Below, piece by piece: positions 1-37,144 of a stretch of 64,000 nucleotides of DNA; positions within the stretch are counted from its first letter, which is position 1, and each line of letters begins with the position of its first letter. The position numbers and the translations under genes are program-made. The notes under the pieces were generated by a model. It saw nothing but the letters and a program-made list of their open reading frames with translations, did no database searches and was not told the origin of the DNA. Origin of the DNA: Candidatus Omnitrophota bacterium. Lineage in GTDB: Bacteria > Omnitrophota > Gorgyraeia > Gygaellales > Profunditerraquicolaceae. The DNA lies in contig JBAZJY010000003.1 of the NCBI GenBank assembly GCA_041651115.1, positions 3,188-67,187 of the forward strand, read 5' to 3'.

Positions 1-523
1 ACCTCAAAAACTTCCAGCGCCCGGACGATCCTGCGCGTGTCATTAGGGTGGATTTTTTGCGCCGCTTCAGGATCAATTTTTGCCAGCCGCTGATGAAGAA
101 AATTACTGCCGTGCATTTTGGCTTCTTTATAAAGCTGCTTACGCAGCCGGCTGTCTTGCGCCTTAACATTAAATATACCGTCAACCACGATTGACATATA
201 CAAGCCTGTCCCCCCGACAAACAGCGGGATCCTGCCGCGGCCGATGATCTCTTTGATCTTTTTTATGGCGCTGCGGCGATAATCGGATACGTTGTATTCT
301 TTTGAAGGAGCGGCTATAGCAATAAGATGATGCGGGATCTTCTTTCTTAAATTTGCCGATGGCTGCGAAGAAATTATCTCCAAGCCCTTGTAAACCTGCA
401 TAGAATCACAAGAGATTATCTCGGCATTGATTTTTTTCGCCAGGCAGGCGGCAATTTCGGTTTTTCCTACGGCAGTTGGGCCGGTAAGAAAAATAATTCT
501 ATTTTTTCGTTTGTGATCTGTCA
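1..523 (-). CDS. miaA: tRNA dimethylallyltransferase MiaA (N-terminal part; C-terminus lies beyond window start)
   Basis: Reverse-complement translation from ATG at 523 gives MTDHKRKNRIIFLTGPTAVGKTEIAACLAKKINAEIISCDSMQVYKGLEIISSQP... The P-loop GPTAVGKT and DSMQVY motif are typical of MiaA. Not in the supplied ORF track because it runs off the window edge. Confidence 0.85.
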
Positions 524-1306
524 TTAAGGAAAGATTTTTGTGGGGTAGCCTTCCGCGGAAAGCCTGGCTTCCAATTCCAAAGCCTCTTGCCGGCTGGCCA
601 GCTTGCCTGATCTTACCCGGTAAACCGGCGCTCCCTGTGAAACCGCTTCTTCAATAAAAGCAGAATAGCCGCTGCGTTCCAGCCGGCGAATGAGATTTTC
701 AGCATTAGCCTTGCTGGCAAAAGAGCCCACCTGCACGGAATAATAGAAGTCATTATTTACCAATAAAAAAGCCTCCCAGCCGGGTTCAACATTCAAGGGA
801 AATTCCCGGCTAAGCCGGTCAAGATAATCCTTGGCAGCAGCGGTATTGCCAAGCTTGGCTTCGCATTGGCTTAAACGGGAATAAACAACCGCTTTTAAAT
901 TTAGCGCATCCTGCCCTGCCAACAGCTCAAGATAACCGTTCTTTGCTTTTTGGAAATCTCCCCGGAAAAAATATGTATCGCTAAGCCCCAGCCGCGCCTG
1001 GGGCGCGTAGCGGCTGGACTTAAGCTCATTAATGATTATTTCAAAAATATCCGACGCGCGCAGGAAATTGCCGTCTTTAAGATAGCTCAAACCGAGAATA
1101 TAATACAGCGCGTCCGCGTCTCTGTCGTTTCCTGCGGAGGCAAGCATCTTTTCGCCTCTGGTTATGGCTGCTCTGTAATCGCCGCTCATCAGATCGGCCT
1201 TAAGCGGATCAAGGTCTAATGCGTAAGCGGGCGTAGAAATCATAAATAATAAGAGCGCCAAATATAAAAAAACATTATCATTGCGAGCGAAGCGAAACAA
1301 TCTCAC
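524..1306 (-). CDS. TPR-repeat protein with C-terminal SPOR (peptidoglycan-binding) domain, signal peptide
   Basis: N-terminal hydrophobic signal (LYLALLLFMISTPAYA). Several TPR-like helical repeats. C-terminal YYSVQVGSF..A..L...L...GY..FI......YRVRSG segment is typical of SPOR domains. Confidence 0.65.
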   Translation of the reverse strand: MRLFRFARNDNVFLYLALLLFMISTPAYALDLDPLKADLMSGDYRAAITRGEKMLASAGNDRDADALYYILGLSYLKDGNFLRASDIFEIIINELKSSRYAPQARLGLSDTYFFRGDFQKAKNGYLELLAGQDALNLKAVVYSRLSQCEAKLGNTAAAKDYLDRLSREFPLNVEPGWEAFLLVNNDFYYSVQVGSFASKANAENLIRRLERSGYSAFIEEAVSQGAPVYRVRSGKLASRQEALELEARLSAEGYPTKIFP

Positions 1307-2445
1307 TTTTTCCCTCTTGATATTTTTTTCTGCAGCTCCAGTATCAACGCGTGCCTTCTTTCCTTTTCCTGCTTCGGCACATCATCTCCCAGCTTAAGGC
1401 TTGCGGTATTCGGCCGGGGTGAATATTTAAAGATGTATGCCGTGTCAAAGCCAACGCCCTTTACAAGATTATAGGTATGCTTAAAATCCGCTTCTGTTTC
1501 TGTCGGAAAACCTACGATGATGTCGGTTGTCAACTTAGGGCTATCTACGATTTTACGATAATTATCCGCCAATGCCAAATAGAATTTTGCCGTATAGCCG
1601 CGGTTCATCAATTTAAGTATCTTGTCCGACCCTGACTGCGCCGGAAGATGCAAATATTTTTTCAGCTTATCGCAAGCTGCCATTGCCTTGAATAATTCAA
1701 CGTCCGCGTCTTTCGGATGAGAGGTGATAAAACTGAATTCCTTCAGCCCCGCAATGGAATTAACGCGCTCAAGCAGCTTAATAAAATCAATATTCCCGTC
1801 TTGATAGGCATTAACGTTTTGGCCTAAAAGAGTGACCTTAACAATACCTTTATCCAGCGCAAGTTTTATTTCATCCAGGATATCTGCGTGCTTACGGTGC
1901 CTTAACCTGCCGCGCGTATAAGGCACAACGCAGTAAGAGCAGAAATTCGAGCAGCCTTCTGAAATAACCACAAAGGAATGCTCTTTATCTTCGTAAAAAC
2001 CCGTATGATAAATTTCCTCTGGCCTGTTCCCGCCTTCCGTTTCCCAGATTTTTACCTCATATAGGCTTTTACCTGTCGCCTGACACCTGTCGCCTGACAC
2101 CTTCTTTATGATTCCCGGGATCTTATGAATATCGGATGGCCCAACTACAAAATCCACGGCTGGACAACGCTCGAAAACCCTATCCTGATAATTCTGCGCC
2201 ATGCAACCAATGAGCCCGATAACCGGGATTCCCTGTTTCTTGAACCTTCCGATCTCGCTCCAAACCTTATCCTCGGCATGTTGCCGGACTGCGCAGGTGT
2301 TAAAGATAAGAATATCCGCCTTTTCCGGGACGCCTGCCAGTTGAAAACCGGAATCCTTCAGCAATCCGGCAACCACTTCCGAATCGCGTAGATTCATTTG
2401 ACAGCCAAAACTGCGAAGATAAACCTTTTTCTTATCTTCTTTCAT
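1303..2445 (-). CDS. radical SAM methylthiotransferase, MiaB/RimO/MtaB family (UPF0004 MTTase domain + radical SAM; TRAM domain apparently absent)
   Basis: N-terminal YLRSFGCQMNLRDSEV...NTCAVRQHAEDK (MTTase domain). CSNFCSYC radical SAM CxxxCxxC. 380 aa ends with a 4-nt ATGA overlap onto the next gene, so it is short rather than frameshifted. Adjacent to miaA. Contains an in-frame 2x14-nt repeat insert (VSGDRCQATGKS) at 2071-2103. Confidence 0.75.
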   Translation of the reverse strand: MKEDKKKVYLRSFGCQMNLRDSEVVAGLLKDSGFQLAGVPEKADILIFNTCAVRQHAEDKVWSEIGRFKKQGIPVIGLIGCMAQNYQDRVFERCPAVDFVVGPSDIHKIPGIIKKVSGDRCQATGKSLYEVKIWETEGGNRPEEIYHTGFYEDKEHSFVVISEGCSNFCSYCVVPYTRGRLRHRKHADILDEIKLALDKGIVKVTLLGQNVNAYQDGNIDFIKLLERVNSIAGLKEFSFITSHPKDADVELFKAMAACDKLKKYLHLPAQSGSDKILKLMNRGYTAKFYLALADNYRKIVDSPKLTTDIIVGFPTETEADFKHTYNLVKGVGFDTAYIFKYSPRPNTASLKLGDDVPKQEKERRHALILELQKKISRGKK

Positions 2446-5188
2446 GTTTATTCTTTTTTAAAAACCAACTGCGGCCCCACTTCTCAATTTCCACAATAAT
2501 GTAAATAAACAAGCCTATCAAAAAAATCCGCGCCCAAGCACTCAGCGAAATCGGAGCGCTATGAAAAAAACGATTCATAGCAGGAGTATACGTAAAAAGC
2601 GTCTGTAAACCGACCATAGTTAAAACACCGAAGACCAGCCAGCGGTTCGAAAATACCCCCAAAGCAAACATTGACTTCGACAGTGACCGACAGTTAAAAA
2701 GATAAAAAAGCTCTCCTATAACCAAAACACCAACGGCTGCGGTGCGCGCTTCTTCAATACTGAATCCGTTATTTCTTTCGTAGAAAAATAGCCCAAAAAC
2801 GCCAAGAGCTAAAAGCACGCCAACAGAGATTGTCCGCGTAATAAGATCCCCGGTCATAATCGGCGTTTTAGGATCACGGGGTAGACGTTGCATCAGATCA
2901 GGTTCCTTGGACTCAAAAGCTAACATCATGCCCAAACATAAAGCGGTAGTCATATTTATCCAAAGTAACTGCACCGGCGCGACAGGAAGCACCATACCTG
3001 CAAAAATGGCAACCATGATAGCAAGGGCTTCGCCTAAATTCGTCGGCAATGTCCAGACAATGAACTTTTTTAAATTATCAAAGACACATCGCCCTTCTTC
3101 GACCGCGGCTTCAATGGAAGCGAAATTATCATCAGTTAAAACCATATCCGCCGCTTCTTTTGCGACCTCTGTACCTGTGCGCCCCATGGCAATGCCTATA
3201 TTAGCTTGTTTAAGCGCCGGAGCATCATTGACGCCGTCTCCGGTCATAGCTACAATAAAACCTCTTGCTTGGATCGCTTTAACAAGCCGCAATTTTTGTT
3301 CCGGAGTCACGCGGGCAAAAACGCTGACCCGATCAACAGATTCCTGTAATTGCTTGTCATCCATATTTTCAAGTTCGCTTCCGCTCAGCGCTGCGAGGTC
3401 TTTAATTAATTCTTCTTCTCCAAGCCGACTTTTAAGGTTTAATTGTTCAGCAATGGCTTTGGCCGTCAGAATATGGTCTCCGGTTATCATCTTAACCAAT
3501 ATCCCGGCCGAATGACAACGTCGTACAGCCTCAATCGCTTCCTTGCGCGGAGGATCTATCATTCCCTGTAATCCTAAAAATGTCAGAGATTCAGTAATAT
3601 CACCGTGATCAATACTATCTTTCTGCGAAGAAATACTGCCACGGGCAAAAGCAAGCACCCTCAAGCCCTTTGCTGCCATAATTTCAACCTGACGCTCAAT
3701 AAGGGCGCGTTTTAAAGGACGGATTTCGCCATTTCCATCGAGATAATTAACGCATTTGGCTAAAATCTTTTCTACCGAACCTTTTAAATAAACAAGCCTA
3801 TTCCCGTTGGGTAAAATATGAAAAGTTACCATATATTGGTATTCCGATTCAAACGGAATAGAATCCTTGCGTGGCAACGAAGGCATGCCCTCGGGAAACA
3901 AGCGTTTGCCTTTATTCGCAGAAACAATAAGAGCCGCCTCTGTCGGGTCACCTTCCACCTGGAATAATCCTTGCCGTTCCACAATCCTGCTGTCGTTGCA
4001 CAATAAGCCTGCACTCAAGCATTCCTTCAGAGCTACATAAGCGGTGGCATCGGAGTTACGCGAAAGCTCTTGAATAGAACCTTCAAAACTATATCCCACC
4101 CCTGAAACTTGATAAGTTTTCCCTGCGCTAAAAATTTCCTGCACAGTCATTTGATTCTCAGTCAGTGTTCCGGTTTTATCAGAACAAATAACTCCGGTAC
4201 TGCCAAGTGTCTCCACTGCCGGTAGCTTACGAATGATAGCGCGGCGCTTAGCCATTCTTGCCACACCTATCGCAAGAGTTATTGTTACAGCTGCAGGCAG
4301 CCCTTCAGGGATAGCCCCTACCGCAAGCGCGACTGCGGCCATAAACATTTCCGCGGCCGATTCCCCTCTAAGGACGCCCACAACAAAAGTAAGTACAGCC
4401 AAGCCCATAATAACGAATAAAAGGTAATGGCTAAAGTGGGCTATTTTAGCGGTAAGGGGCGTCTCTAAATTTTCAGCCGTACTAACCAATTCTGAAATCC
4501 GTCCGACTTCGGTTGAGTCTCCGGTGGCGGTAACAACAGCTTTACCCCGGCCATAGGTAACAAAGGTTGAGGCATAAAGCATATTTAATCTATCCGCTAA
4601 AACAGTTTTTGAATCCAAAGGATTAATTTGCTTCTCAACTGGGACAGATTCACCGGTAAGAGGAGATTCGTTAGTTTGCAGGTCCCTCATAGAAATAAGA
4701 CGCATATCGGCTGATACCTTATCGCCAGATGCAATCATAACAACGTCTCCGGGTACCAACTCGGTAGATGCAATATGCTGTTCCTCACCGTCTCTTAATA
4801 CGGAAACAGAAGATGTCATAAAACGAGAAAGGGCTTCAAGGGCTTTTAAAGCCTTGGATTCCTGCAGAAAACCAACGATGGCATTAATAAGAACAACTCC
4901 AAAGATTACTGAAGCCTCAACCCATTCTTTTAAAAAAAGCGTAGTCACTACCGCCGCCAGAAGAATGTACACAAGGGGCTGATGGAATTGTATTAGAAAA
5001 CGTAGCCACAATGGCATGCCTTTTTTGGGGGTGATTTGATTTAAACCAAAACGTTCCATGCGCCTCTTAACCTCACCCAAGGATAAACCAACAGAAACAT
5101 CAACTTCAAGCCGTTTGATAACTTCATCAGCTGACAATGAATGCCAGGATTCTTTAGTAAGGCTTGAAATTTCACTAATCATAAACAA
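2432..5188 (-). CDS. cation-transporting P-type ATPase (type II, Ca2+/Mg2+-ATPase-like)
   Basis: 918 aa. CSDKTGTLT phosphorylation motif, TGDGVNDAPALKQANIGIAMG hinge motif, 10 predicted TM segments, N-terminal cation ATPase domain. Confidence 0.85.
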   Translation of the reverse strand: MFMISEISSLTKESWHSLSADEVIKRLEVDVSVGLSLGEVKRRMERFGLNQITPKKGMPLWLRFLIQFHQPLVYILLAAVVTTLFLKEWVEASVIFGVVLINAIVGFLQESKALKALEALSRFMTSSVSVLRDGEEQHIASTELVPGDVVMIASGDKVSADMRLISMRDLQTNESPLTGESVPVEKQINPLDSKTVLADRLNMLYASTFVTYGRGKAVVTATGDSTEVGRISELVSTAENLETPLTAKIAHFSHYLLFVIMGLAVLTFVVGVLRGESAAEMFMAAVALAVGAIPEGLPAAVTITLAIGVARMAKRRAIIRKLPAVETLGSTGVICSDKTGTLTENQMTVQEIFSAGKTYQVSGVGYSFEGSIQELSRNSDATAYVALKECLSAGLLCNDSRIVERQGLFQVEGDPTEAALIVSANKGKRLFPEGMPSLPRKDSIPFESEYQYMVTFHILPNGNRLVYLKGSVEKILAKCVNYLDGNGEIRPLKRALIERQVEIMAAKGLRVLAFARGSISSQKDSIDHGDITESLTFLGLQGMIDPPRKEAIEAVRRCHSAGILVKMITGDHILTAKAIAEQLNLKSRLGEEELIKDLAALSGSELENMDDKQLQESVDRVSVFARVTPEQKLRLVKAIQARGFIVAMTGDGVNDAPALKQANIGIAMGRTGTEVAKEAADMVLTDDNFASIEAAVEEGRCVFDNLKKFIVWTLPTNLGEALAIMVAIFAGMVLPVAPVQLLWINMTTALCLGMMLAFESKEPDLMQRLPRDPKTPIMTGDLITRTISVGVLLALGVFGLFFYERNNGFSIEEARTAAVGVLVIGELFYLFNCRSLSKSMFALGVFSNRWLVFGVLTMVGLQTLFTYTPAMNRFFHSAPISLSAWARIFLIGLFIYIIVEIEKWGRSWFLKKNKHERR

Positions 5189-19352: not shown

Positions 19353-22300
19353 TTACTTCAAAAACGGCAGCAAGCCTTCATGGCCGAGGATGTTTATCCG
19401 GCCGTCAATAAACTCATAGGCGTCTTCTTCAAGTATGAACTGATCAAAAGCAGAATAATCAGCGCTTACCAGAGGATGATAGAAATAAACCACCGGCATA
19501 AGGGTAAAAGTATTTATCCGGTATAAAGCCATATCTGTCTCGCTAAGCACCGGCTTAAGCAGCGCGTCAGCAGTTGCCAATTGAGAGATAACCGCAGGTA
19601 ATGATCCGGTAATATTAAAATTACCCGATGTTATAGCACTTAAACCTGCCGCAGAAGCAGTCAGCGCATAGCCGGTACCTGGCAGGTTAATGAATAAGTC
19701 GCCAAAAGTAACTACTCCGCCTGAAGCAGTGTGGGTGAGCGTTCCGGAAAGAGCTGCTCCGGAAGGATTAATGCCAAGTGCAATACTCACGGAAGTCGCA
19801 TTATCCGTGCTGGCAGTATTGCCGAATTGATCTCTAAGCGTAATGGTTATTGCCGGCGCGATCAACGTATTAAAATCAACGCTGGACGGCTGCTGGCTAA
19901 ATACCATTATAGCCGCAGCAGCAGGGTTCACGGTTACTGCCAAAGGAACCGATGTAGTAACCGCACCCTGCGTTGCGGAGATCGCGGCGCTTTCCGCGTT
20001 ATATAATACTGCGCTGCCTCCGCTGGTTGAAACGCCGTTAGTAAAAGTAACCACGGTATTTGCGCCAAAACTTATTGCTGCGCCGTTCTTATCCGTGACC
20101 GTAGGAACGAAGCTGCCAATAGAATTTGCTCCGCTAAAGACCAGGGTTTTGTCTCCGGAGTAAGACAAGGCTGTGCCGCCGACCCCGTCAATTGCCGTGA
20201 TCGTCAGGAGATTGGCTGCCCCGGCATTCTGTGAGCCGGAGCCGGAGACTACGAAATGGTCCACCAGGTTCCAGTTAGTATTATTGCCGCTGTCTTTTGA
20301 GCTTGTTGCCGTTATCACAGAAGCGTTGATATTATTTGAATCTTTTACATCTACAAAAGAAACACTGCGGCTTCCTTGCGGATCGATCAGCCATTGCGAG
20401 CCGCTTACTGAACTGCGCAGGATGATCAGGTTACCCGATGTGCCGGTAAGTGTCAACGCTCCGTTAATAGTCAGCGTTGTGCCTGCGGTAAAGGTAACCT
20501 GATTACCCGCGGATACGGTAAAGCTTCCGGTAACAAGCTTATCGCTTAACGAGGCAAACGTCGCCTTGTTGGTATTGGTATCATTAATGCTCAAATTAAA
20601 GTAGTCCGTTGCCCCGAAATCTTTGATCGTAATGGTTTCCGCGATATTCCTGCCTACATATTCCCAGGTTCCGGAGTCAGTATCATTCACTGTCCAGGAT
20701 ACGGTTTCTATTCCCTGCAGCCGCAAGGTACCGTTATTCACGAAAGAAGTGGTAGTGGTAATATTAAATCCGTTAAGATAAAGCACCCCCGAGCTGATCG
20801 TCAGGGTGCCGTTTATATCCAGGTTATTATTGATCAGCGTAACTACCGCTCCGCCGGATTTATTAATCACTAAATCCTGGAAATCGTCGCCTGCAGCAAC
20901 GCCGCCTGAATCAAGCGTAGAATTAATTGAACCGTCAAACGTAACTATGCTATCCTGGGAATTAAACGTTGCGGAATTTGACCAATTACCGGCAACGTTA
21001 ATACTAAAATCGGACGCACTTGTATTAAGTGTGCCGCCTGAGATCGTCAAATTGCCGTCTACATCAAGATTACCGGCAAGGGTTGAGGTACCACCGGTGA
21101 ATTCAATATTATCAAATGCCATAGTGGTTGAGGTCCCCTGTCCGTCTATAGTATTCGCGCCGTTAAAGACCACAAGCGAATTATTGGTAGTAGCGTCCAC
21201 TGTTCCCGCGATATAAGTCCAGGCTCCTGCGCCTGCCCCATTTATGCGGATCGTACCTGCCAGCGTTAAAGTGCCTGCGCTCTTATTAATCGTCAAATCA
21301 GGCAGCTCGCCGGCGCTGACCGTAGCATTGCCGGTAAAAAGCTGGTTGGCAGATCCCGTGATCTGAAGCAGCGCAGAGCCGCCATCAGTCAAACTTCCCT
21401 GGATCAGATCTCCCTGCACATTAATAGTTCCGGTATTGATCGTTCCATCGGTATAGGTAAAAGTACCGGTTATAGTAAGCGTAGTGCCGCTTGCGATTAC
21501 CCTGGTCCCGGCATTATTGAAAGTCACATTATTCAGGGTATGCGAACCCGTAATAGTCATACCGCCGTCAAATACCAGCGTGCTTGAGCCGGTATTCAGC
21601 GTCCCTGCCGTATATGTCCAGGCATTCGCGCCCTGCCCATTGGTACGGATAGTGCCGGCGAGGAAAAGCGTACCGCTGGCCTTGTTGATCGTAACATCGG
21701 GTAATTCGCCTGCCGTTGTAGTGGCGCTGCCGGTAAAAGTCTGATCAGAAGCGCCGTCAATAATCAGCGTAGCTGTGCCTCCGTCAAACGTGGATAATTG
21801 AACAATATTCCCGCGCGCGGAAACTGTGCCGGAATTAATACCGCCGTCGGTCAACGTAAGAGTTCCCATAATAATAATCGTATCTGCTGCAGCTACTGTC
21901 TTGTTTGCGGTAGAATTAAAATTTACATTGTGGAATGTTTCGGTGGTAAGCACATTGATCGTGGCGCCTGCGCCGCTAAAAGTAACGCTGCTGGTACCCT
22001 CGTTAAACGCGCCTGCGCCGGAAATAGTAAAATTATTGGCAATGTCAAGATTAGCTGAACCCGCGTTAAATATGCCTGTGCCTGAAGCAGCAAAGTTATT
22101 CGCTATGTTTATATTGCCGGTACCTGCATTGAAAGTGCCGCCGGAAACGCTAAAATTACGGCTTACTGTCAAAGTTTGACCGCCTAAATTAACCGTACCT
22201 CCTGCCTGGCTGAAATCCCTGACTGAAAGCGAACGCTCAAAAGTAATAGTGCCTGTATAACCCGAACCGATCAACAGGTCGCGGATCGTGCCGGCAAAGG

Positions 22301-24035
22301 CTGCGTCTACAATAGAATCTTTGGTTGAGGTAGCGTCAAAGGTCGCGTCAGTAGTAGAGATTGGCAGGGTATTGCCTGACCAGTTATCCGCGTCAGACCA
22401 GTTATTGGTAGTACCGCCGCCGTCCCAGGTAGGGTCAATTTCAAAATTAACGTTGTTTCCCGCGTCAACGCCGATCGGGATAATAACGGTATTTAACGCG
22501 TAGGCATCACGGATATTCACTCTTTCAAGGAGATATCCTGCAGCCTGAAGGTCCAGATACCAATATTCGCCTGCCTGGCTTGAACGCAGTTTAATGAAAA
22601 ATTCTTCAGGGCCGATATCAACAGCGCCGATTATACTCAAGCTTCCTTTAAAAGTATATGTCTTTCCCGCTTCAAAATATATTTCTTTATCGGGGATCGC
22701 TAAATTGAGATTATAAAAAGTAATATTTCCGTAAAGATATACGGGTTCATTTCCTAAAAAGCTTACTTCTGCTGCCTCTAATGTAAGGCTTGAGCCTTTA
22801 TCATAGAGGATCGCGCCGAATCCATCCGGAGGACCGCGCAGCAACACACTTGTGCCGATGCCTAAGCTTTCCAATATATCTATGTTGCCTAATGACCGGA
22901 TAAAATGAATATGCTCCGCGTCAATTGCGATAGGAAAACCTGCTGCGCCAAGGCTCCTGGCAGTGATATTTACTTCACTTGCCCGGATAACCACAGCTAA
23001 AGTTGCCACGTCAGCTAAAGGATCGCTGTTTAAAGTCGTCTTTATGTTTTCAGCTTCAATAACTACTTCTCCGCCAACAGCTTCTATTAAGCCATCCTGG
23101 ATTACGTCTGCTGCCTTTATATAAACCGCTCCGGCCCCTGCTTCTAACGCCCCGGCATTAATCACCGGAGCGCCTTCGGCTACCAGCTCAATTATCCCAT
23201 TATTGCTTACAAGGTTAGTTGCCTGGATTATACCTGAATTATTGATCGCGTGATCAAAGATATGATTCAAAGCTTTGACGGCTAAAATTACTTTGCCTCC
23301 CGGATTAAGGATTGTCCCGCTATTGCGAACGGCCGAGCTTAATTTTTCGCCGTCAAAGCCAAATATTTCTTCTTTTACAGCTTCATCGATCACTACGGAA
23401 ATCATGCCGGCAGTATCAAGATTAAGGGTGATCTTCTCTCCGGCTGCCAGGACTACCGAGCCTAATGTCGTTTCAATGGTGCCGGCATTAGCTACCGCAG
23501 AGCCCAATAAAACCGCCTGTCCGCCTTCCCTTATTTTTATGTAGCCGTTATTTATTACCGGCTTGCCTACTTTATCTACCCATTTAGTAAAAATATAATT
23601 TGAAGAAAGGAAATCGCTGTTTTGTATATTTAATGTGGAAGCGATAATGCCTGCGGCATCTATCCTTGCCAATGGGCCGATATTTATGCCGTTGGGATTG
23701 ATCAGATAAATTATGCCGTTTGCGCTAAGCGTGCCGAATATGCCGCTTATTTGGTCGCCCAAAACGCGGTTCAAGGCAGCAGAGGTTGCGGACGGCTGAT
23801 AAAAATAAACCGATTCGCCGGCTGCAATGCTAAAACTGTTATAATCAATGATTAATTTATCGGAAGGAGTGGTGATCTTAAGGATGTTCGGTTCGGAGCG
23901 GTCAAAACTGGCGCTACCCTCAATTATGCTTTCTCCTTCAGGAAGGGCAAAAGCAGAATTCAGGCTGATAAGCCAAAGGCTTACCAGTGCCAGTATCCAT
24001 ACGCTTATCTTTTTAACTCTATGCACCCTCAACAT
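19353..24035 (-). CDS. two-partner secretion exoprotein TpsA (filamentous-haemagglutinin family), 1560 aa, beta-helical with internal tandem repeats
   Basis: Signal peptide. N-terminal TPS domain (IIDYNSFSIAAGESVYFYQPSATSAALNRVLGDQISGIFGTLSANGIIYLINPNGINIG) with the NPNGI motif. Long Gly/Thr/Asn-rich beta-helix region with two ~133-aa tandem repeats. C-terminal 50 aa shared with the 24980..26581 protein. Confidence 0.8.
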   Translation of the reverse strand: MLRVHRVKKISVWILALVSLWLISLNSAFALPEGESIIEGSASFDRSEPNILKITTPSDKLIIDYNSFSIAAGESVYFYQPSATSAALNRVLGDQISGIFGTLSANGIIYLINPNGINIGPLARIDAAGIIASTLNIQNSDFLSSNYIFTKWVDKVGKPVINNGYIKIREGGQAVLLGSAVANAGTIETTLGSVVLAAGEKITLNLDTAGMISVVIDEAVKEEIFGFDGEKLSSAVRNSGTILNPGGKVILAVKALNHIFDHAINNSGIIQATNLVSNNGIIELVAEGAPVINAGALEAGAGAVYIKAADVIQDGLIEAVGGEVVIEAENIKTTLNSDPLADVATLAVVIRASEVNITARSLGAAGFPIAIDAEHIHFIRSLGNIDILESLGIGTSVLLRGPPDGFGAILYDKGSSLTLEAAEVSFLGNEPVYLYGNITFYNLNLAIPDKEIYFEAGKTYTFKGSLSIIGAVDIGPEEFFIKLRSSQAGEYWYLDLQAAGYLLERVNIRDAYALNTVIIPIGVDAGNNVNFEIDPTWDGGGTTNNWSDADNWSGNTLPISTTDATFDATSTKDSIVDAAFAGTIRDLLIGSGYTGTITFERSLSVRDFSQAGGTVNLGGQTLTVSRNFSVSGGTFNAGTGNINIANNFAASGTGIFNAGSANLDIANNFTISGAGAFNEGTSSVTFSGAGATINVLTTETFHNVNFNSTANKTVAAADTIIIMGTLTLTDGGINSGTVSARGNIVQLSTFDGGTATLIIDGASDQTFTGSATTTAGELPDVTINKASGTLFLAGTIRTNGQGANAWTYTAGTLNTGSSTLVFDGGMTITGSHTLNNVTFNNAGTRVIASGTTLTITGTFTYTDGTINTGTINVQGDLIQGSLTDGGSALLQITGSANQLFTGNATVSAGELPDLTINKSAGTLTLAGTIRINGAGAGAWTYIAGTVDATTNNSLVVFNGANTIDGQGTSTTMAFDNIEFTGGTSTLAGNLDVDGNLTISGGTLNTSASDFSINVAGNWSNSATFNSQDSIVTFDGSINSTLDSGGVAAGDDFQDLVINKSGGAVVTLINNNLDINGTLTISSGVLYLNGFNITTTTSFVNNGTLRLQGIETVSWTVNDTDSGTWEYVGRNIAETITIKDFGATDYFNLSINDTNTNKATFASLSDKLVTGSFTVSAGNQVTFTAGTTLTINGALTLTGTSGNLIILRSSVSGSQWLIDPQGSRSVSFVDVKDSNNINASVITATSSKDSGNNTNWNLVDHFVVSGSGSQNAGAANLLTITAIDGVGGTALSYSGDKTLVFSGANSIGSFVPTVTDKNGAAISFGANTVVTFTNGVSTSGGSAVLYNAESAAISATQGAVTTSVPLAVTVNPAAAAIMVFSQQPSSVDFNTLIAPAITITLRDQFGNTASTDNATSVSIALGINPSGAALSGTLTHTASGGVVTFGDLFINLPGTGYALTASAAGLSAITSGNFNITGSLPAVISQLATADALLKPVLSETDMALYRINTFTLMPVVYFYHPLVSADYSAFDQFILEEDAYEFIDGRINILGHEGLLPFLK

Positions 24036-31073: not shown

Positions 31074-31815
31074 TCTTAATTTCCCCCCATATCTTGTTTA
31101 ACGCGCGCAAGCTTAAACTATCGGTTTCCAATTTCCATAACGAAGTTCCGTTAAGGCTGATTTTAGCAATCTCCTCATCCAAAGGCAGGTTACCTATATA
31201 TTGCAGGCCTAAGGCTTCAAGTTTTTCTTTTTCCATTTTGCCGTTCCAGCGGTTTATGATCAGCTGCTTGGCCCTAGCCTTAATGCCTAACTGCCCTACT
31301 AAAAGCGCGATCCTTGCCGCAGCCTTCAGCCCTACTCCGGTTGCGTCTGAAATCACCAACAGCACATCCGCGCTTCTTGTGGTGCGCCGCGAGAGATGTT
31401 CCAGGCCCGCCTCGTTATCCATAACCACAAAATCATAATCATCCGTCAGCTTGCTCATTACCGACCTTAAAATGTTATTCACGTAACAATAACAACCCGG
31501 GCCTTCGGGCTTGCCCATTGTAATAATATCAAAGCCGTCTTCTTCCTGAACTGCCGATTGCACGCGGTATTCAACAAAGCGATCCTTGGTCCATCCTTGC
31601 GGTATTTTATCCGGATGCGCCGCGACTTGATCAAGAATATCCCCGATGGTTTCTTTTACTTCCACGCCGAGGCTTTCCGCCAGGTTTGAATTCGGGTCGG
31701 CATCCACTGCCAAAACCGAACCCAAACCAGCCTCCTTGATTAACCTGACAAGAAGGGCAGCAATCGTAGTTTTACCCGTACCGCCTTTACCGGCAAGGGC
31801 GATCGTATAGCTCAT
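31063..31815 (-). CDS. CooC/AcsF-type P-loop ATPase (Ni-insertion accessory protein of CODH/ACS; MinD/ParA fold)
   Basis: IALAGKGGTGKTTIAALL deviant Walker A. 250 aa. Located inside the acs cluster. Confidence 0.7.
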   Translation of the reverse strand: MSYTIALAGKGGTGKTTIAALLVRLIKEAGLGSVLAVDADPNSNLAESLGVEVKETIGDILDQVAAHPDKIPQGWTKDRFVEYRVQSAVQEEDGFDIITMGKPEGPGCYCYVNNILRSVMSKLTDDYDFVVMDNEAGLEHLSRRTTRSADVLLVISDATGVGLKAAARIALLVGQLGIKARAKQLIINRWNGKMEKEKLEALGLQYIGNLPLDEEIAKISLNGTSLWKLETDSLSLRALNKIWGEIKNGN

Positions 31816-33731
31816 AATTTAACACTGGGGAATCTGGCCAGGTCCGTATGCGGAAAAAATAAAGCCGCCACATATTCATCCATATACGCCGGTTCAGTGG
31901 ATAATTCCAGGTAAGTCATTTTCCGGGCGATTTCTTCTGCCTGCCTCATTGCTTCATAAGATAAAATTATTGCCCTGGCCCCGGAAAGCGAGCTATTGCC
32001 GACAAAAACGATCCGGCTGCGCTGGATATCCGGCAGTAATCCGATGTTTATGGCGTTATTGATGTCAACTGAAGTGCCAAAGCCTCCGGCAATGAATAAT
32101 TTCTTCACGTCATTAAGGTCAATGTCCATGCGCCGCAGCAACACCAGCATAGCCGAATAGATCGCGGCCTTGGCGCGCTTAAGATTATCTATATCAACTT
32201 CCGTAATTACTATATCTGAAGTTGAATCCGCGTCTTCCTTAAATACCACGACGAATTCCCTGCCCATTTCCGACTGGCGGATACGCTTATGTTTAAGATC
32301 CTTGATCTTACCGCCCTTATCCAATATTCCGGCAGCCAGCATTTCCGCGATCAAGTCAATATAGCCTGAGCCGCAGATACCTTTGGCTTTCATCCCGCCG
32401 ATCGTCTCATAAGAAATGTTAAAATCTTTACCGGAAATCTTTACTTTTTGCACCGCGCCTTTTGTCGCGCGCATGCCGCAGCTAACACCGCTTCCTTCAA
32501 ACGCCGGCCCGGCAGACGCAGCACAACTGACCATAAAATCCCTATCTCCCAGGACGATCTCTCCGTTGGTGCCGATATCAATAAGGATGCTTAAATCATC
32601 CGCCTTATCTATGCCGCAGGACAATACTCCGCTGGTTACGTCTCCGCCCACATAACTTGCCACGCCCGGCACGCAGGTTAACAAGCCGCGCGGGTTTATT
32701 TTTACGCCGGCTTCTGTGGCGCGCAAAGGCGGGATAAAATTCGCTGCCGGCACATACGGCTCTTTCCTGATATAGGTCGGGTCAATGCGTAAAAGCAGAT
32801 GCATCATTGTGGTATTACCGGCGCACAACACGCAGGTAACGTCGTTTAAGTCTATGCTATGCTCGGCGATCAACTCCTGGCTCATACGGTTCATTTCTTC
32901 TGCCACGGCGCAATGCAGCTTTTCCAGGCCGTCCGGCTCGCGGGCATAGATTATGCGCGTGATCACATCGCTGCCAAAAGTCGCCTGCTTGTTATAAGCT
33001 ACCTTGGTGCCCAGGACCTTGCTTTTATTTAAATCCACAAGCTGGCCGGTAACCGTAGTTGTGCCGATATCAAAACACATCCCAAAATTCCTCTGTGAAG
33101 TATCTCCCGGCTCGATCTGAATGATCTCTGTCACGCCGTTACGCCTGGCAAGGGTTACCGTAATCTTCCATCCGGAAGAACGCAGCAACTCACTTAAATT
33201 GCGAATACTGACAATGCCGGTCTGGATGATCAAGGCATTGGGAAGCATTTTATTTATCTGCCGGTACAACCGCTCCAGATCGCTGACCTTATCATCCAGG
33301 TCAGGAGCCGGAAGCTCAAGATAGAACTTTGAAGTAAACGGAAGATTGCTAAATGCCTGCTCTGCCAGCCCGGGCTTTACCGGTTCAATATCCTCAATAT
33401 CGGAATAAGTATTTTTCAGCTCTTGATCGCTGACTTTTTCAAAATCCGCTGCCGATTCCGGAGGGATTTCAACTTCCAGATCGCCCTGGACTTCAGAAAG
33501 GCAGGCAAGATATACGCCCCTTGCTTTTTCTTCGCTGCTTAAAAGACCGGTTGCCTGCATCAGGACACTGCCTTTTTTCAAAACTACTTTGCAGCGGCCG
33601 CATACGCCGTCTCCGCCGCAGACTGAATTAAGCGGCACTCCCGCGGAAACCGCCGCGGAAAGAATGGTAGTATCCTTTTCCACTTCCACGGTTTTGTTAT
33701 AAGGATAGAATGTAACTTTGAATTTACTCAT
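31812..33731 (-). CDS. reductive activator of corrinoid Fe-S protein (RACo): N-terminal [2Fe-2S] ferredoxin + ASKHA-type ATPase
   Basis: Start assigned to ATG at 33731 (MSKFKVTFYPYNKTVEV...). CGGDGVCGRCKV plant-type ferredoxin cysteines. About 600 aa ATPase body. Gene order acsC-RACo-cooC-acsD-acsE. Confidence 0.7.
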   Translation of the reverse strand: MSKFKVTFYPYNKTVEVEKDTTILSAAVSAGVPLNSVCGGDGVCGRCKVVLKKGSVLMQATGLLSSEEKARGVYLACLSEVQGDLEVEIPPESAADFEKVSDQELKNTYSDIEDIEPVKPGLAEQAFSNLPFTSKFYLELPAPDLDDKVSDLERLYRQINKMLPNALIIQTGIVSIRNLSELLRSSGWKITVTLARRNGVTEIIQIEPGDTSQRNFGMCFDIGTTTVTGQLVDLNKSKVLGTKVAYNKQATFGSDVITRIIYAREPDGLEKLHCAVAEEMNRMSQELIAEHSIDLNDVTCVLCAGNTTMMHLLLRIDPTYIRKEPYVPAANFIPPLRATEAGVKINPRGLLTCVPGVASYVGGDVTSGVLSCGIDKADDLSILIDIGTNGEIVLGDRDFMVSCAASAGPAFEGSGVSCGMRATKGAVQKVKISGKDFNISYETIGGMKAKGICGSGYIDLIAEMLAAGILDKGGKIKDLKHKRIRQSEMGREFVVVFKEDADSTSDIVITEVDIDNLKRAKAAIYSAMLVLLRRMDIDLNDVKKLFIAGGFGTSVDINNAINIGLLPDIQRSRIVFVGNSSLSGARAIILSYEAMRQAEEIARKMTYLELSTEPAYMDEYVAALFFPHTDLARFPSVKL

Positions 33732-35065
33732 GCCATATTCTTTAAAAATGACGGCAGACCGGCAGCTTCCTTTGGCCCGACAATGATCTCCCATCCGGAT
33801 TTATCCTCCAGCTCGCCGCTCATCATTGCTACGTAACCGGGGATGATCAACCGTTTATGGGAAACCGTATCCTTGATCCCGAATTTATTCATTGAATCGG
33901 CGATCTTTTCAGGAGTGAATTTTTCCGCTGCCCAGGCAGTTAAAACCGACATGCCCTCCGTATCCACGCTAATGATATACGACGGGATCTTGCTGGCTTC
34001 AACTTCGCCTAAGACTGTAAAATAGGAAAGCGAAAAGTTAGTAGTCACTAAAACCGGAGATTTATCGTTTACGCTGCCTACCGGATAAACCTTGGGCTCG
34101 ATCTGCAGAGGTTTTTGCGGGTCAGTGTAGATATTCTGGCGTAAAGTTAAAAGCGCCAGCGCCTGCTGGGGCTCTGCGCCTTTAAGCAGCACAATACCGG
34201 CGTACTTAGCAATATAACCGGATGCTTCTATCGCCTCTTCATACGGGTCAACGGATGAAGTCATTGTCATTACCGGATACCCTAAACTGCGATTGGATTT
34301 TTTTAAGGCCTGCCTTCTTATTTGCGTCAGGTCCCAGATCTTTTCTGCCGGAGATTTTATGCCGGTATCTAAAACCAGTTCACTTACGCCCTGGTTATTC
34401 AATTCTTTTGTAATCGCGGTTAAACTATCCAGGTCATGGGCGCTTACCGCAAGCGCGGTATTGAATTCTTTGGCGAGCTTCCCCATTTCCGCGGCATTAG
34501 AGGCATTCGCATAACAAACCAGCGGCTTTCGCGCTTTAGACAATTCAAGCGCAGGCCGCAACGCGCTCAGATCTCCGGAGATCAGGGCAATGTTCAGCTT
34601 GGTCGCCTTTAAAACCAGCTCCGCTGCTTTAACAAACCTGTCTTTAGTGCTATTTTGCTTTATCGCCACGAGGTTCACATCCAGCTTCTGGCCCACGCGC
34701 TCAAATGCCAGGCGGTTTATCTTTTCCAGCTTCTTGCTGATCTCTCCGTCCGTTAAGCTGTCGTCAATGATAAAGCCAATGCCGCATGGCCGGTGGAATT
34801 TTTCTTCGTGCCGGAAAAGCACTGATTCATTGCCGATCTCAAGTTTGTTTTCGCCCTCGCCGACAGTAACCAACTTGATCGGCGGCTGCGAAGATGCCTC
34901 AAGGACTTTTTTTGCCTCTGCGCTTAAAAACGGGCATTTATCAATGCTCACTGCTTTTTTGGCAAGCTGCATTGCAAAGGCAAGGCAAGTGACAAAGCCG
35001 CATTCGCGGCAGTTGGTTTTCGGCAATAACTTGTAGATGTCCAATCCGGAAAGAGCCATGCGCAA
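33728..35065 (-). CDS. acsC: corrinoid iron-sulfur protein large subunit AcsC ([4Fe-4S] domain + TIM barrel + B12-binding Rossmann domain)
   Basis: MALSGLDIYKLLPKTNCRECGFVTCLAFAMQLAKKAVSIDKCP is the N-terminal CxxCxxxxC...C cluster motif of CFeSP large subunits. 445 aa. Confidence 0.8.
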   Translation of the reverse strand: MRMALSGLDIYKLLPKTNCRECGFVTCLAFAMQLAKKAVSIDKCPFLSAEAKKVLEASSQPPIKLVTVGEGENKLEIGNESVLFRHEEKFHRPCGIGFIIDDSLTDGEISKKLEKINRLAFERVGQKLDVNLVAIKQNSTKDRFVKAAELVLKATKLNIALISGDLSALRPALELSKARKPLVCYANASNAAEMGKLAKEFNTALAVSAHDLDSLTAITKELNNQGVSELVLDTGIKSPAEKIWDLTQIRRQALKKSNRSLGYPVMTMTSSVDPYEEAIEASGYIAKYAGIVLLKGAEPQQALALLTLRQNIYTDPQKPLQIEPKVYPVGSVNDKSPVLVTTNFSLSYFTVLGEVEASKIPSYIISVDTEGMSVLTAWAAEKFTPEKIADSMNKFGIKDTVSHKRLIIPGYVAMMSGELEDKSGWEIIVGPKEAAGLPSFLKNMA

Positions 35066-35076
35066 TCCTCCTAAGA

Positions 35077-35742
35077 TTACTTATTAATCAAGCTCGCAAA
35101 ATACCCCGCGCCAAATCCATTATCTATGTTGACTACCGTAACTCCCGGAGAGCAGCCGTTAAGCATTGAAAGCAATGCCGCAAGCCCCCCGAAACTCGCT
35201 CCATAACCGCAGCTCGTCGGAACGGCGATCACCGGCGAACTTACCAGGCCGCTGACTAAACTTGCCAGCGCGCCTTCCATACCGGCGACCACGACGATCA
35301 CCTTGGCCTTCTTTAAATAGTCCAGATTATGCATCAGCCTGTGCACGCCGGCAACCCCGACATCATAAAGCTTGACCGCGCGGTTACCCATTACTTCAAG
35401 CGTGACAAAGGCTTCATCGGCTATGGGAATGTCGGAAGTGCCCGCGGAAATAACTACCGCCAACCCCTTAGCGGGCCTTTTAACTGCGACAGAATATCCC
35501 AACCTGGCGGAAATATTATATTTTAGGCGAGGAAAACTTTTTTTCAGGTAAGCGTAAACCGGCTTATCCAGCCGGGTAAGTAACAAATCCTGCTTATTGG
35601 CAATAAGCTTGCGGCAAATTTCCCTGATATGCTCTCTTGTCTTACCAGCGCAATATATGACTTCAGGAAAACCCCTGCGCCTATGCCGGTCAATATCCAC
35701 TTTGGCAAAGCCAAGGTCGCAGAAACCAGTTTCAGAAACCAT
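35077..35742 (-). CDS. larB: LarB-like PurE-fold carboxylase (pyridinium-3,5-biscarboxylic acid mononucleotide synthase family)
   Basis: DLGFAKVDIDRHRRRGFPEVIYCAGKT N-terminal motif. Flavodoxin-like PurE fold (VVISAGTSDIP...VVAGMEGALASLV). 11 nt upstream of acsC. Confidence 0.55.
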   Translation of the reverse strand: MVSETGFCDLGFAKVDIDRHRRRGFPEVIYCAGKTREHIREICRKLIANKQDLLLTRLDKPVYAYLKKSFPRLKYNISARLGYSVAVKRPAKGLAVVISAGTSDIPIADEAFVTLEVMGNRAVKLYDVGVAGVHRLMHNLDYLKKAKVIVVVAGMEGALASLVSGLVSSPVIAVPTSCGYGASFGGLAALLSMLNGCSPGVTVVNIDNGFGAGYFASLINK

Positions 35743-36053
35743 TAAAATCCCCGGAAAATGATCACCAGTATTGCCGCGATGATTAAAGCGGACAGGATAT
35801 AAAAATCGTTAAAATAGAAGAAATCCCCGACCTTTTCTCCGAAACTCGCCTTCAGGAGAGCGCTACTCTTCTGCGCATGCGGTTTGGAATTCTTTTTGAA
35901 CTCTTCAACCTGATAGCGCTTGAACCTTAAATATACGCCGCCGATCTTATAGGCAGGCAAGATCTGGCTTTCAGCCAAGTCAATGACTTCCTTTTCCGAT
36001 ATATCAAGGAATAGCGACACTTCCCTTATAGTCAAAAGTTTTTCTTCAGACAT
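35742..36053 (-). CDS. small protein: N-terminal excisionase-type HTH (HTH_17) + C-terminal TM helix
   Basis: LLTIREVSLFLDISEKEVIDLAESQILPAYKIGGVYLRFKRYQVEEF HTH. C-terminal FYILSALIIAAILVIIF membrane anchor. Stop/start overlap with larB. Confidence 0.45.
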   Translation of the reverse strand: MSEEKLLTIREVSLFLDISEKEVIDLAESQILPAYKIGGVYLRFKRYQVEEFKKNSKPHAQKSSALLKASFGEKVGDFFYFNDFYILSALIIAAILVIIFRGF

Positions 36054-36089
36054 ATTAATAGTAAATAATCGCGGCGTTTATGAGTTAAT

Positions 36090-36179
36090 CCCGTAGCTAT
36101 TTCGAAAAATACCTGTATGCTACGGGATAAGTTCGGACATATAAGTTATGTTCGCTTCGCTCCATAACTTCTTATGTCC
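36090..36179. promoter_or_regulatory. two intergenic palindromes (CCCGTAGC...GCTACGGG and GGACATATAAGTTATG...CATAACTTCTTATGTCC), candidate operator sites
   Basis: Inverted repeats between the bactofilin-HTH gene stop and the HTH-TM gene start. No U-tract after either, so not classical terminators. Confidence 0.3.
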
Positions 36180-36183
36180 TTAC

Positions 36184-36696
36184 TTATTTTCCTACTTTTC
36201 CCGAAGCGACCCACGAATCAATCGCCTTCCTCTCGAATTTCCAGTTCTCGCCTTCCTTGAACCCGGGGACTTTACCGGAATTGGCCCATTCAAACACCGA
36301 ATTCAGGTCCACTTCAAGGTAGCGCGCCAGTTCTTCGGAGTTCAGGAAATCGTGCAGCATCAAACAGCGGCCTTCAAGTATTGCGCCTTCTGCGACGTTG
36401 AGTTTCGCCGGGTATATGTCTCCCTCAACGATCGCGCTGGGCAAGAGGGTCAATCTTTCTTTCGCGGTGATCTTACCTTTTACCCTGCCGCCGATAACGA
36501 TGTTGTCGCCGATAATGTCGGCGAAAACTATCGCCGAATTCCCGACGGTAAGGTTGCCTTTAGTATCAAGGTTGCCTTCAAACTTGCCGTTGATACGCAG
36601 GTTAACCGGGTCCTTAAAACTTAAGGTGCCCTGCATTGCCGCGTCTACATCAAGGACTTTCTCTTCCGGTTTCTTATTAAACGCCATTGCCCTCAC
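36184..36696 (-). CDS. bactofilin (DUF583) polymer-forming protein fused to a C-terminal excisionase-type HTH (HTH_17) domain
   Basis: Bactofilin beta-helix repeats (GNLTVGNSAIVFADIIGDNIVIGGRVKGKITAKERLTLLPSAIVEGDIYPAKLNVAEGAILEG). C-terminal LNSEELARYLEVDLNSVFEWANSGKVPGFKEG.NWKFERKAIDSWV HTH. Confidence 0.6.
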   Translation of the reverse strand: MRAMAFNKKPEEKVLDVDAAMQGTLSFKDPVNLRINGKFEGNLDTKGNLTVGNSAIVFADIIGDNIVIGGRVKGKITAKERLTLLPSAIVEGDIYPAKLNVAEGAILEGRCLMLHDFLNSEELARYLEVDLNSVFEWANSGKVPGFKEGENWKFERKAIDSWVASGKVGK

Positions 36697-37144
36697 CTCC
36701 TTTAATTTTTTCTTCTTTTCCGAGTATCATGCCGTCAACATAACGTAGAAAGAAAAGAACCATAAGCGTAAGGATGGTAGTAACAATAGCCGCGCTGTAG
36801 AAACCGCAGCCCACGGCAAGGCCGATGCCGGCAACCGTCCAAAGGCTGGCAGCCGTGGTCAGGCCTTTTACGCCCTGCCCCTGCGTGATTATTGCGCCTG
36901 CGCCCAGGAATCCTACTCCGGTAATCACTCCGGCGGCAATGCGCGCCGGGTCAAGCGCTACTATATTTTTATATATATCAAAAATATACAGCGATGTCAA
37001 CATTATAAGGCAAGAGCCGAGGCATACCAAAATATGCGTGCGCAATCCGGCTGTGCGGCGGTGTAACTGCCGCTCAAGGCCGATCAGGCCGCTCAATGCC
37101 ACTGACATGACTAACCGCGCTGTGACCTGAAAATCCGTAAGCAT
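36677..37144 (-). CDS. MgtC/SapB family membrane protein
   Basis: LIGLERQLHRRTAGLRTHILVCLGSCLIM...AAGVITGVGFLGAGAII is the MgtC signature. 155 aa. Confidence 0.7.
   Translation of the reverse strand: MLTDFQVTARLVMSVALSGLIGLERQLHRRTAGLRTHILVCLGSCLIMLTSLYIFDIYKNIVALDPARIAAGVITGVGFLGAGAIITQGQGVKGLTTAASLWTVAGIGLAVGCGFYSAAIVTTILTLMVLFFLRYVDGMILGKEEKIKGGEGNGV

Follow-up and report, generated by a model that had tools for sequence, protein, structure and literature searches.

In a 64-kb stretch of DNA from a Candidatus Omnitrophota bacterium (GenBank assembly GCA_041651115.1, contig JBAZJY010000003.1; called the window from here on), we found two adjacent genes, A and B, that bring together a bactofilin, two winged helices, and a putative membrane anchor. 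Gene A encodes a bactofilin fused to a C-terminal winged helix-turn-helix (HTH) domain, and gene B, which follows directly downstream, encodes a small protein with a second winged helix and a hydrophobic C terminus. The pair is strongly conserved and previously undescribed in the uncultured phylum Omnitrophota. The features of the two open reading frames (ORFs) are as follows.

36184..36687, minus strand: gene A, bactofilin-winged-helix fusion, a 167-amino-acid ORF with its stop codon at 36184-36186 and its ATG at 36685-36687
36696..36700, minus strand: Shine-Dalgarno sequence GGAGG of gene A, 8 nt 5' of the ATG (read from the sequence)
36667..36687, minus strand: N-terminal peptide of A, MAFNKKP (family consensus MAFKKK), which resembles a bactofilin membrane-targeting sequence and is disordered in the model
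36355..36648, minus strand: bactofilin beta-helix domain of A, residues 14-111, including L104 (Pfam, model, Foldseek, and profile)
36190..36348, minus strand: C-terminal winged HTH of A, residues 114-166, b1-a1-a2-b2-b3-a3 (Pfam, model, Foldseek, and profile)
35742..36053, minus strand: gene B, putative tail-anchored winged-helix protein of 103 amino acids (ORF, HTH_17, C-terminal hydrophobic segment)
35877..36041, minus strand: winged helix of B, residues 5-59 (model and Foldseek)
35799..35825, minus strand: juxtamembrane motif DFFYFNDFY of B, residues 77-85 (invariant columns in the alignments)
35748..35801, minus strand: C-terminal transmembrane helix of B, residues 85-102 (Kyte-Doolittle and predicted helix)

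The ORF list had given gene A as 36184-36696, with 170 amino acids and a GTG start at 36696. The homologues of A all begin with MAF, matching the ATG at 36687, and this ATG is preceded by AAAGGAGGTGA, so that the GTG at 36696 falls within its Shine-Dalgarno sequence; the product of gene A is therefore a protein of 167 amino acids. A database entry of the same length is 100% identical to it and is named 'polymer-forming cytoskeletal protein [Candidatus Omnitrophota bacterium]'. Pfam Bactofilin (PF04519) matches residues 14-111 of A with 83.7 bits (threshold, 27.9), and HTH_17 (PF12728) matches residues 117-166 of A with 35.9 bits and residues 6-55 of B with 36.1 bits (threshold, 27); more distant members reach 30.6-41 bits against HTH_17. 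All scores in the window lie above the gathering scores, which bears out an earlier note made from this DNA alone that had seen a bactofilin domain and a C-terminal HTH_17 in one protein and had proposed this comparison, with the correction that the protein is 167 and not 170 amino acids long. A frameshift or annotation artefact behind the fusion is ruled out, as A is a single uninterrupted ORF and the same two-domain protein of 167-170 amino acids recurs in hundreds of database clusters and in 85 loci that we fetched. Neither a second bactofilin nor a further HTH_17 gene is present in the 64-kb window.

The AlphaFold2 model of A, built on a 38-sequence alignment, predicts a beta-helix with a predicted local distance difference test (pLDDT) score above 90 over residues 21-110, and a winged helix of the order b1-a1-a2-b2-b3-a3 at residues 114-161 with a pLDDT of about 75, while the first 8 residues are disordered. 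Foldseek searches against the PDB matched the N-terminal part to BacA (2n3d; template modelling score, 0.83) and TtBac (6rib; 0.88) and the C-terminal part to BldC (6ama; root mean square deviation [rmsd], 1.5 Å over 49 residues), as well as to RdfS, Pukovnik Xis, and RacA. Profile searches of the PDB pointed to the same proteins, since the A-family profile found BacA and TtBac with E values of 1.2e-14 and 5.8e-14, and a profile of the winged helix alone found RacA as the best match (3.1e-5), followed by BldC (about 1e-3) and mycobacteriophage Xis (0.028). Single-sequence PDB searches with HTH pieces gave nothing useful, and profiles were required. The linker between the two domains is only 2-3 residues long, and the junction C108-x-M-L-H-D-F-L-N116 is nearly invariant by column conservation in the close clade, which suggests that the winged helix of A is held in a fixed orientation on the beta-helix.

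A also retains features of canonical bactofilins. Its family N terminus reads MAFKKK(L/M/V)EEK, with residues 1-6 being M, A, F, K, K, and K in 65-85 of 86 sequences. A membrane-targeting peptide at this end is typical of most bactofilins but not obligatory. The global consensus of these peptides, MFSKKKK, works through a pair of hydrophobic residues and a pair of lysines, and the one in BacA is weak by itself but is helped by the avidity that polymerisation brings (PMC12448750). MAFKKK is similar to this consensus but has an extra alanine and is followed by acidic residues. L104 of A aligns with F130 of BacA and F105 of TtBac, at which an arginine substitution blocks polymerisation, and this position is leucine, phenylalanine, or methionine throughout the family (L47/F37/M2 in 86 sequences). 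Given an N terminus like a membrane-targeting sequence and a hydrophobic residue at the polymerisation position, A looks like a working, membrane-associated bactofilin.

Characterised bactofilins have a core domain with short unstructured tails on either side (PMC10945521), which serve to recruit partners, and their genes typically adjoin genes for bitopic membrane clients that bind via a cytoplasmic N-terminal region (PMC10945521; PMC12448750). A shares with Caulobacter crescentus BacA, Thermus thermophilus TtBac, and Hyphomonas neptunium BacA the PF04519 domain, the predicted beta-helix, the hydrophobic polymerisation residue, the peptide resembling a membrane-targeting sequence, and an adjacent gene for a bitopic protein. 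Unlike in these proteins, however, the C terminus of A is a folded and conserved winged helix rather than a short disordered tail, and the neighbouring membrane protein B has no periplasmic enzyme domain. To our knowledge, none of the bactofilins examined to date carries a folded effector domain. The A-B pair adds to a known kind of system a folded effector, fused to the bactofilin, and an obligate partner; it is not a new kind of system.

In the AlphaFold model of B, a winged helix at residues 6-59 is followed by a linker of poor order and then by two helices, at 67-81 and at 83-102 (pLDDT of the latter, 85-93), and the Kyte-Doolittle maximum over 19 residues is 2.45, at residues 85-103. The single C-terminal transmembrane helix that had been proposed for the gene after A thus agrees with both hydrophobicity and prediction. 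The linker is variable (22% identity), whereas the winged helix is conserved, and the latter is matched by Foldseek to BldC with an rmsd of 1.2 Å and also to RacA, Xis, and MerR-family proteins. By profile comparison, the winged helices of A and B are homologous yet distant (hhalign probability, 97.7%; 24% identity), so that the description of the two genes as carrying the same HTH holds at the level of one Pfam family and goes too far at the level of sequence. The stop codon of B overlaps the start of the next gene, larB (TAATG, read from the sequence).

The fusion is common in nature and appears to be fixed in its phylum. A scan of one genome per GTDB species, with a pattern built from 8 A sequences, returned at least 599 stretches, of which at least 550 were confirmed as A; the best 80 of these confirmed stretches are 75-87% identical to A of the window, and nearly all are labelled Omnitrophota. 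A word-index search with A gave 2225 matches, the best 120 of which are all two-domain proteins of 167-181 amino acids (mostly 167-168) with 80-100% identity, and the same search with B gave 758 matches of about 103 amino acids from Omnitrophota. An exhaustive search with HMMER through 1.84 billion representatives added about 20 full-length 50%-identity clusters that contain both domains, at 25-57% identity to A of the window. The fusion was not seen outside Omnitrophota in any of these searches. Some records with the same gene order are titled 'uncultured Planctomycetales', 'Candidatus Margulisiibacteriota', or 'Candidatus Pacebacteria' (L007, L008, L016, L018, L022, L072, and others among the fetched loci), and their A proteins are 77-84% identical to that of the window; because these contigs share the gene order TsaD-MgtC-A-B-LarB, the labels look wrong or the contigs mis-binned.

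We compared gene neighbourhoods in the 85 close loci (L001-L085) and in five more distant contexts. B lies directly after A in all of the 85 close loci that reach past A and in 5/5 distant contexts, despite the differing neighbours of the latter, and A and B are one co-inherited two-gene module. Where the contig has room, the order TsaD-MgtC-A-B-LarB is found in 84/85 close loci, with no MgtC detected in L076. The distant contexts are arranged as follows.

L086: MgtC-A-B
L087/88: BatD-TPR-MgtC-A-B-PDZ
L089/90: S41-Polysacc_deac_2-TsaD-A-B-SNase
L092: TsaD-MgtC-A-B-LarB
L094: SPOR-TPR/PDZ-A-B

The module is under strong constraint, as seen from the mean pairwise distances over 56 distinct loci.

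A bactofilin domain: 0.21
A winged helix: 0.25
MgtC: 0.28
LarB: 0.30
B winged helix: 0.32
TsaD: 0.36
B tail: 0.37

By this measure, each of the two domains of A changes less rapidly than TsaD, an essential enzyme of tRNA modification. Across a whole uncultured phylum, a bactofilin that carries its own winged helix has become fixed together with a partner anchored in the membrane, under a constraint above that on this enzyme. The architecture, which had been called unusual, is indeed so among the bactofilins that have been studied, but in nature it is common and belongs to a conserved pair across the phylum. Full-text literature searches returned no paper that joins bactofilin with Omnitrophota or with excisionase, and where papers pair bactofilin with helix-turn-helix, the two reside in distinct proteins, as with BacR and PadC. 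In databases the A/B family is found only under automatic names, and A is called either 'polymer-forming cytoskeletal protein [Candidatus Omnitrophota]' or 'excisionase family DNA binding protein'.

The second of these names, which JGI gives to both proteins, raises the question of whether the pair is a remnant of a mobile element, in which HTH_17 would be part of an excisionase (recombination directionality factor) or of a MADS1-type defence system and would stand beside a bactofilin by accident. MADS1 and the excisionase model TIGR01764 are in fact the best NCBIfam matches, but the scores of the two proteins are 49.7 and 33.3 bits for MADS1 (NF047737), against a cut-off of 80, and 23.8 and 24.6 bits for TIGR01764, against 28.8. 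No integrase, methylase, or defence gene lies nearby, and the genes sit in a fixed housekeeping block in which A changes more slowly than TsaD. The subthreshold scores and the fixed housekeeping synteny make a mobile-element or defence origin so improbable that we exclude it. The BldC family model NF033787 likewise stays below its cut-off (15.9 bits versus 77), and whereas members of that family are small stand-alone proteins, the domain is part of a fusion in A and of a tail-anchored protein in B.

One further sequence of the bactofilin-HTH_17 type comes from a record labelled Omnitrophica (L091, positions 1-4848; JGI 3300009777, Ga0105164_10002154) and is the most divergent family that we encountered, with 25% identity to A of the window. 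The gene 3' of this fusion is not B-like, and the fusion lies downstream of a Volactin-like gene (PF25216), a gene for a ParA/MinD-like ATPase with AMPK1_CBM, and unannotated genes of about 209-217 amino acids. It may represent a separate cytoskeletal or partition cluster.

While the fold and the closest relatives of both winged helices point toward DNA binding, the residues that would make the contacts tell a different story. We mapped the BldC-DNA contacts (PMC5859096) onto the A and B alignments and counted the residues in each column.

BldC Lys26, base contact: N129 in A (N/S), K21 in B
BldC Thr27, phosphate contact: S130 in A, E22 in B (E/D)
BldC Arg30, bidentate base contact: E133 in A (E74/D11 of 85), D25 in B (D57/E9/N3/G1 of 70)
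BldC Trp31, phosphate contact and DNA kink: W134 in A (kept), L26 in B
BldC Lys33, phosphate contact: N136 in A, E28 in B
BldC His46, minor groove: N148 in A (mostly D in the family), V40 in B
BldC Arg47, wing in minor groove: W149 in A, Y41 in B
BldC Arg48, wing in minor groove: K150 in A (kept), not cleanly aligned in B

R30A and H46E each abolish DNA binding by BldC, and RacA uses the equivalent of Arg30 (PMC5859096). Several observations therefore weigh against DNA binding by A and B. The Arg30 position is glutamate or aspartate in 85/85 close A sequences and aspartate, glutamate, or asparagine in 69/70 close B sequences; in distant members of A it is mostly E/Q/D and occasionally R/K, and in distant members of B it is S/H/D and never basic. 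The equivalents of Lys33, His46, and Arg47 are nonbasic in A (N136, mostly aspartate, and tryptophan), and that of Lys33 is glutamate in B, so that basic contact residues are kept only at K150 (R48) in A and at K21 (K26) in B. Neither domain is basic as a whole, with a net charge of about -1 in A (range, -3 to 0) and +0.3 in B, and the second helix of the B domain (S-E-K-E-V-I-D-L-A-E) is acidic, and four of its acidic positions are conserved within the close clade (E20, E/D22, D25, and E28). Moreover, no candidate conserved DNA site was found, MerR-like folds can bind protein, and the winged helix of A, on its very short linker, might sit where it hinders end-to-end polymerisation. In favour of DNA contact, A keeps W134 (W31), S130 (T27), and K150 (R48). 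Considering the missing Arg30-type residues and the neutral-to-acidic domains, sequence-specific reading of the major groove as in BldC and RacA is unlikely for A and B, and DNA binding of any kind is not assured; nonspecific binding to DNA driven by avidity is possible, as is binding to protein. The proposal of the earlier note that the polymer is tied directly to DNA is weakened accordingly by the acidic Arg30 equivalents and a net charge of about -1 and 0, since it draws on family membership only.

The most economical model has a bactofilin polymer on the membrane present its winged helices as an array and act with a tail-anchored winged-helix partner, either to tether the nucleoid to the membrane or to anchor one protein to another. 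Of these, our results lead us to favour, tentatively and with somewhat less than even confidence, a role in which A and B tether DNA with low sequence specificity by avidity and thereby place the nucleoid at the membrane. A would polymerise via its bactofilin beta-helix, and each subunit would display a rigidly attached winged helix of the RacA/BldC/Xis type, giving a periodic array on the polymer, while B would be a tail-anchored inner-membrane protein that shows a second winged helix on the cytoplasmic side. The arrayed winged helices would then bind DNA with an affinity that comes from multivalency instead of canonical base-reading residues, and the polymer together with B would keep the nucleoid at the membrane or organise it there, with an outcome like that of RacA-DivIVA or BacNOP-PadC-ParB. 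We rank this reading first because the closest relatives of the two domains are architectural DNA binders, because BldC forms an array on DNA, where it gains affinity by head-to-tail multimerisation on direct repeats (PMC5859096), and because RacA is an exact functional precedent for a domain of this kind being coupled to a scaffold at the membrane. Bactofilins have also been tied to DNA-binding proteins before, through PadC/ParB (PMC5703909) and through BacR (PMC13649987). More doubtful is the stronger proposal that the two genes form a self-contained nucleoid-membrane tether, in which every bactofilin subunit carries a RacA-like winged helix, the tail-anchored partner is obligate, and DNA is bound by avidity through a surface that is not basic.

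The same acidic surfaces could instead mean that the winged helices are protein-protein adaptors that act without DNA, with A binding B, possibly through a BldC-like head-to-tail interface, and B serving as an anchor or client in the manner of LmdC and PbpC, so that the pair would have a role in the envelope or in cell shape. The second helices of both domains are acidic or neutral and the base-reading arginine is missing, the surface charges are strongly conserved, and A keeps the hydrophobic residues of the BldC dimer 'head' (L124, V126, and W134, corresponding to F21, V23, and W31 of BldC). CbpM, a protein-binding MerR fold, is among the Foldseek matches of B, bactofilin genes are typically found beside genes for bitopic membrane clients (PMC10945521; PMC12448750), and envelope genes adjoin the pair in several contexts, among them an S41/CtpB-like protease, Polysacc_deac_2, SPOR, and PDZ/TPR. 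However, mirror-tree analysis found no coevolution of the A and B winged helices above background, as the partial correlation of their distance matrices is 0.15, like that of other segment pairs. A already has a peptide resembling a membrane-targeting sequence and perhaps needs no anchor, B has no periplasmic domain to position, and the closest structural relatives of both domains are all DNA binders. Taken together, we consider a purely protein-binding role less likely than not, though a close second to the tethering of DNA.

A third potential role is regulatory and brings in the spacer between A and B, in which the earlier note had seen two palindromes at 36090-36179. These are real inverted repeats, at 36088-36187, but the module does not generally carry them.

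36127..36187: spacer hairpin 1, outer arms 36127-36141/36173-36187 (15 nt, 87%) and inner arms 36143-36150/36163-36170, overlapping the stop codon of A
36088..36128: spacer hairpin 2, perfect 10-nt arms 36088-36097/36119-36128 with a 21-nt loop

The folding energy of the spacer RNA is -40.3 kcal/mol (z = -4.2). Over the 85 loci the spacer measures 0-174 nt (median, 15 nt) and has only 0-7 nt in many species. Where it is long, it usually forms a strong fold (z, -4 to -9), with sequences that are unrelated to each other. A homologue of hairpin 1 occurs only in part of the L065 spacer; searches of the window and of the fetched loci turned up no further copies of the palindromes, and hairpin 2 is present as a single copy in the window. 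With a spacer of such variable length, often of 0-7 nt, the palindromes cannot be the general binding site of a conserved HTH, which rules them out as a conserved operator. They are also not an intrinsic terminator, for no T-run follows them and a terminator scan found none there. A match to the Rfam family RAGATH-28 at 36154-36227 on the minus strand, over hairpin 1 and the 3' end of A, scores 24.1 bits against 45.3 (E, 0.19) and was taken as chance. The palindromes are best seen as lineage-specific intercistronic stem-loops that may shift the expression of A relative to that of B.

A regulatory role would be akin to that of BacR, with the winged helices acting as transcription factors that are gated by sequestration on the polymer (A) or by a membrane tether (B). 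In Bacillus subtilis, BacR is encoded together with bactofilins, binds DNA, is recruited to the membrane, and loses DNA binding on bactofilin (PMC13649987), and single-domain winged helices of the BldC type regulate transcription (PMC5859096). Such a switch is nonetheless an unlikely function of A and B, for no conserved operator was found, the spacer and upstream regions being variable, the start of A overlaps MgtC within a long co-directional array, and a factor that is fused or tail-anchored cannot leave its tether without proteolysis. Furthermore, the base-reading residues of the relatives are missing, and neither A nor B matches DUF4004 (PF13171) at E values up to 1. BacR (YhbD, DUF4004), which works with BacE and BacF, is like A and B a bactofilin-linked HTH protein, is recruited to the membrane by bactofilins, and joins bactofilin, DNA, and membrane. 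In contrast to A and B, of which one has its HTH fused and the other tail-anchored, it is soluble and a protein by itself, has about 210 amino acids and the PF13171 domain, and is found in Bacilli and Clostridia.

The translation of B in the window may also be initiated differently from that in its relatives, as suggested by a spacer of 130 nt, where B starts 0-15 nt past the stop codon of A in most relatives, and by the 30 nt 5' of its ATG (36054-36086, minus strand; …CGATTATTTACTATTAATATG), which lack a Shine-Dalgarno-like purine run.

Returning to tethering of DNA by avidity, RacA of B. subtilis with DivIVA is the nearest known case, as RacA is the closest solved sequence relative of the winged helix of A, and both systems would couple a MerR-like winged helix to a membrane-associated polymeric scaffold. 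RacA binds its separate scaffold through a coiled coil. In A, by contrast, the scaffold is fused and is a bactofilin, glutamate or aspartate replaces the base-contacting arginine, and the model has no coiled coil, so that the combination that marks RacA, a winged helix with a DivIVA-binding coiled coil and a YpG-contacting arginine, is absent. The BldC, Xis, and RdfS proteins share the b1-a1-a2-b2-b3-a3 fold (rmsd, 1.1-1.6 Å over 47-51 residues) and the W31, T27, and R48 equivalents kept in A, and they differ in that the R30, K33, H46, and R47 equivalents are nonbasic here and that the NCBIfam models for BldC, excisionase, and MADS1 stay below their cut-offs. Oligomerisation of A and B would also come from the fused polymer or the membrane anchor and not from DNA-templated head-to-tail contacts; RdfS is described as an oligomeric winged-helix protein (PMC11963761). 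In Myxococcus xanthus, the BacNOP-PadC-ParB/ParA system likewise uses a bactofilin scaffold to position chromosome-bound complexes, but the link is made by a separate ParB-like adaptor and ParABS, and a ParB-like or ParA gene is not part of the A-B module. If the tethering of DNA is correct, two genes would combine the scaffold, the adaptor, and the DNA-binding protein, for which RacA-DivIVA and BacNOP-PadC-ParB rely on separate proteins. Should the domains bind DNA, the pair would be the simplest known link between polymer, DNA, and membrane and a compact model for chromosome organisation by bactofilins, while if they do not, it would show clearly how a winged helix of the MerR/Xis type has come to connect proteins with each other.

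The remaining features of the region concern the neighbours of the module. Upstream of A lies one more gene that is frequently linked to it.

36677..37144, minus strand: MgtC-family membrane protein gene (Pfam MgtC, 141 bits), overlapping the start of A by 11 nt

An MgtC gene is found directly upstream of A in 84/85 close loci and, in versions of 155-219 amino acids, in L086, L087/88, and L092, and it is absent from this position in L089/90 and L094; the MgtC-family protein may be a third component of the module. In L002 (5828-6498), LarB is split into ORFs of 143 and 68 amino acids, and in L004 (4542-4820), MgtC is cut to 92 amino acids; both genes are intact in the near-identical L001 and L003, and these changes are probably assembly errors or recent pseudogenes.

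From about 524 to 43103 of the window, almost every long ORF is encoded by the minus strand, and the genes form a dense co-directional array that includes A and B as well as an ORF of 1560 amino acids at 19353-24035. The stretch 3' of B (31812-35742, minus strand) encodes LarB, which acts in nickel-pincer cofactor synthesis, a corrinoid Fe-S protein of the CdhD/AcsD type, and a reductive activator of the RACo type. In relatives, a gene for a CooC/CbiA-like ATPase comes next in this stretch, and these genes are of the Wood-Ljungdahl type.

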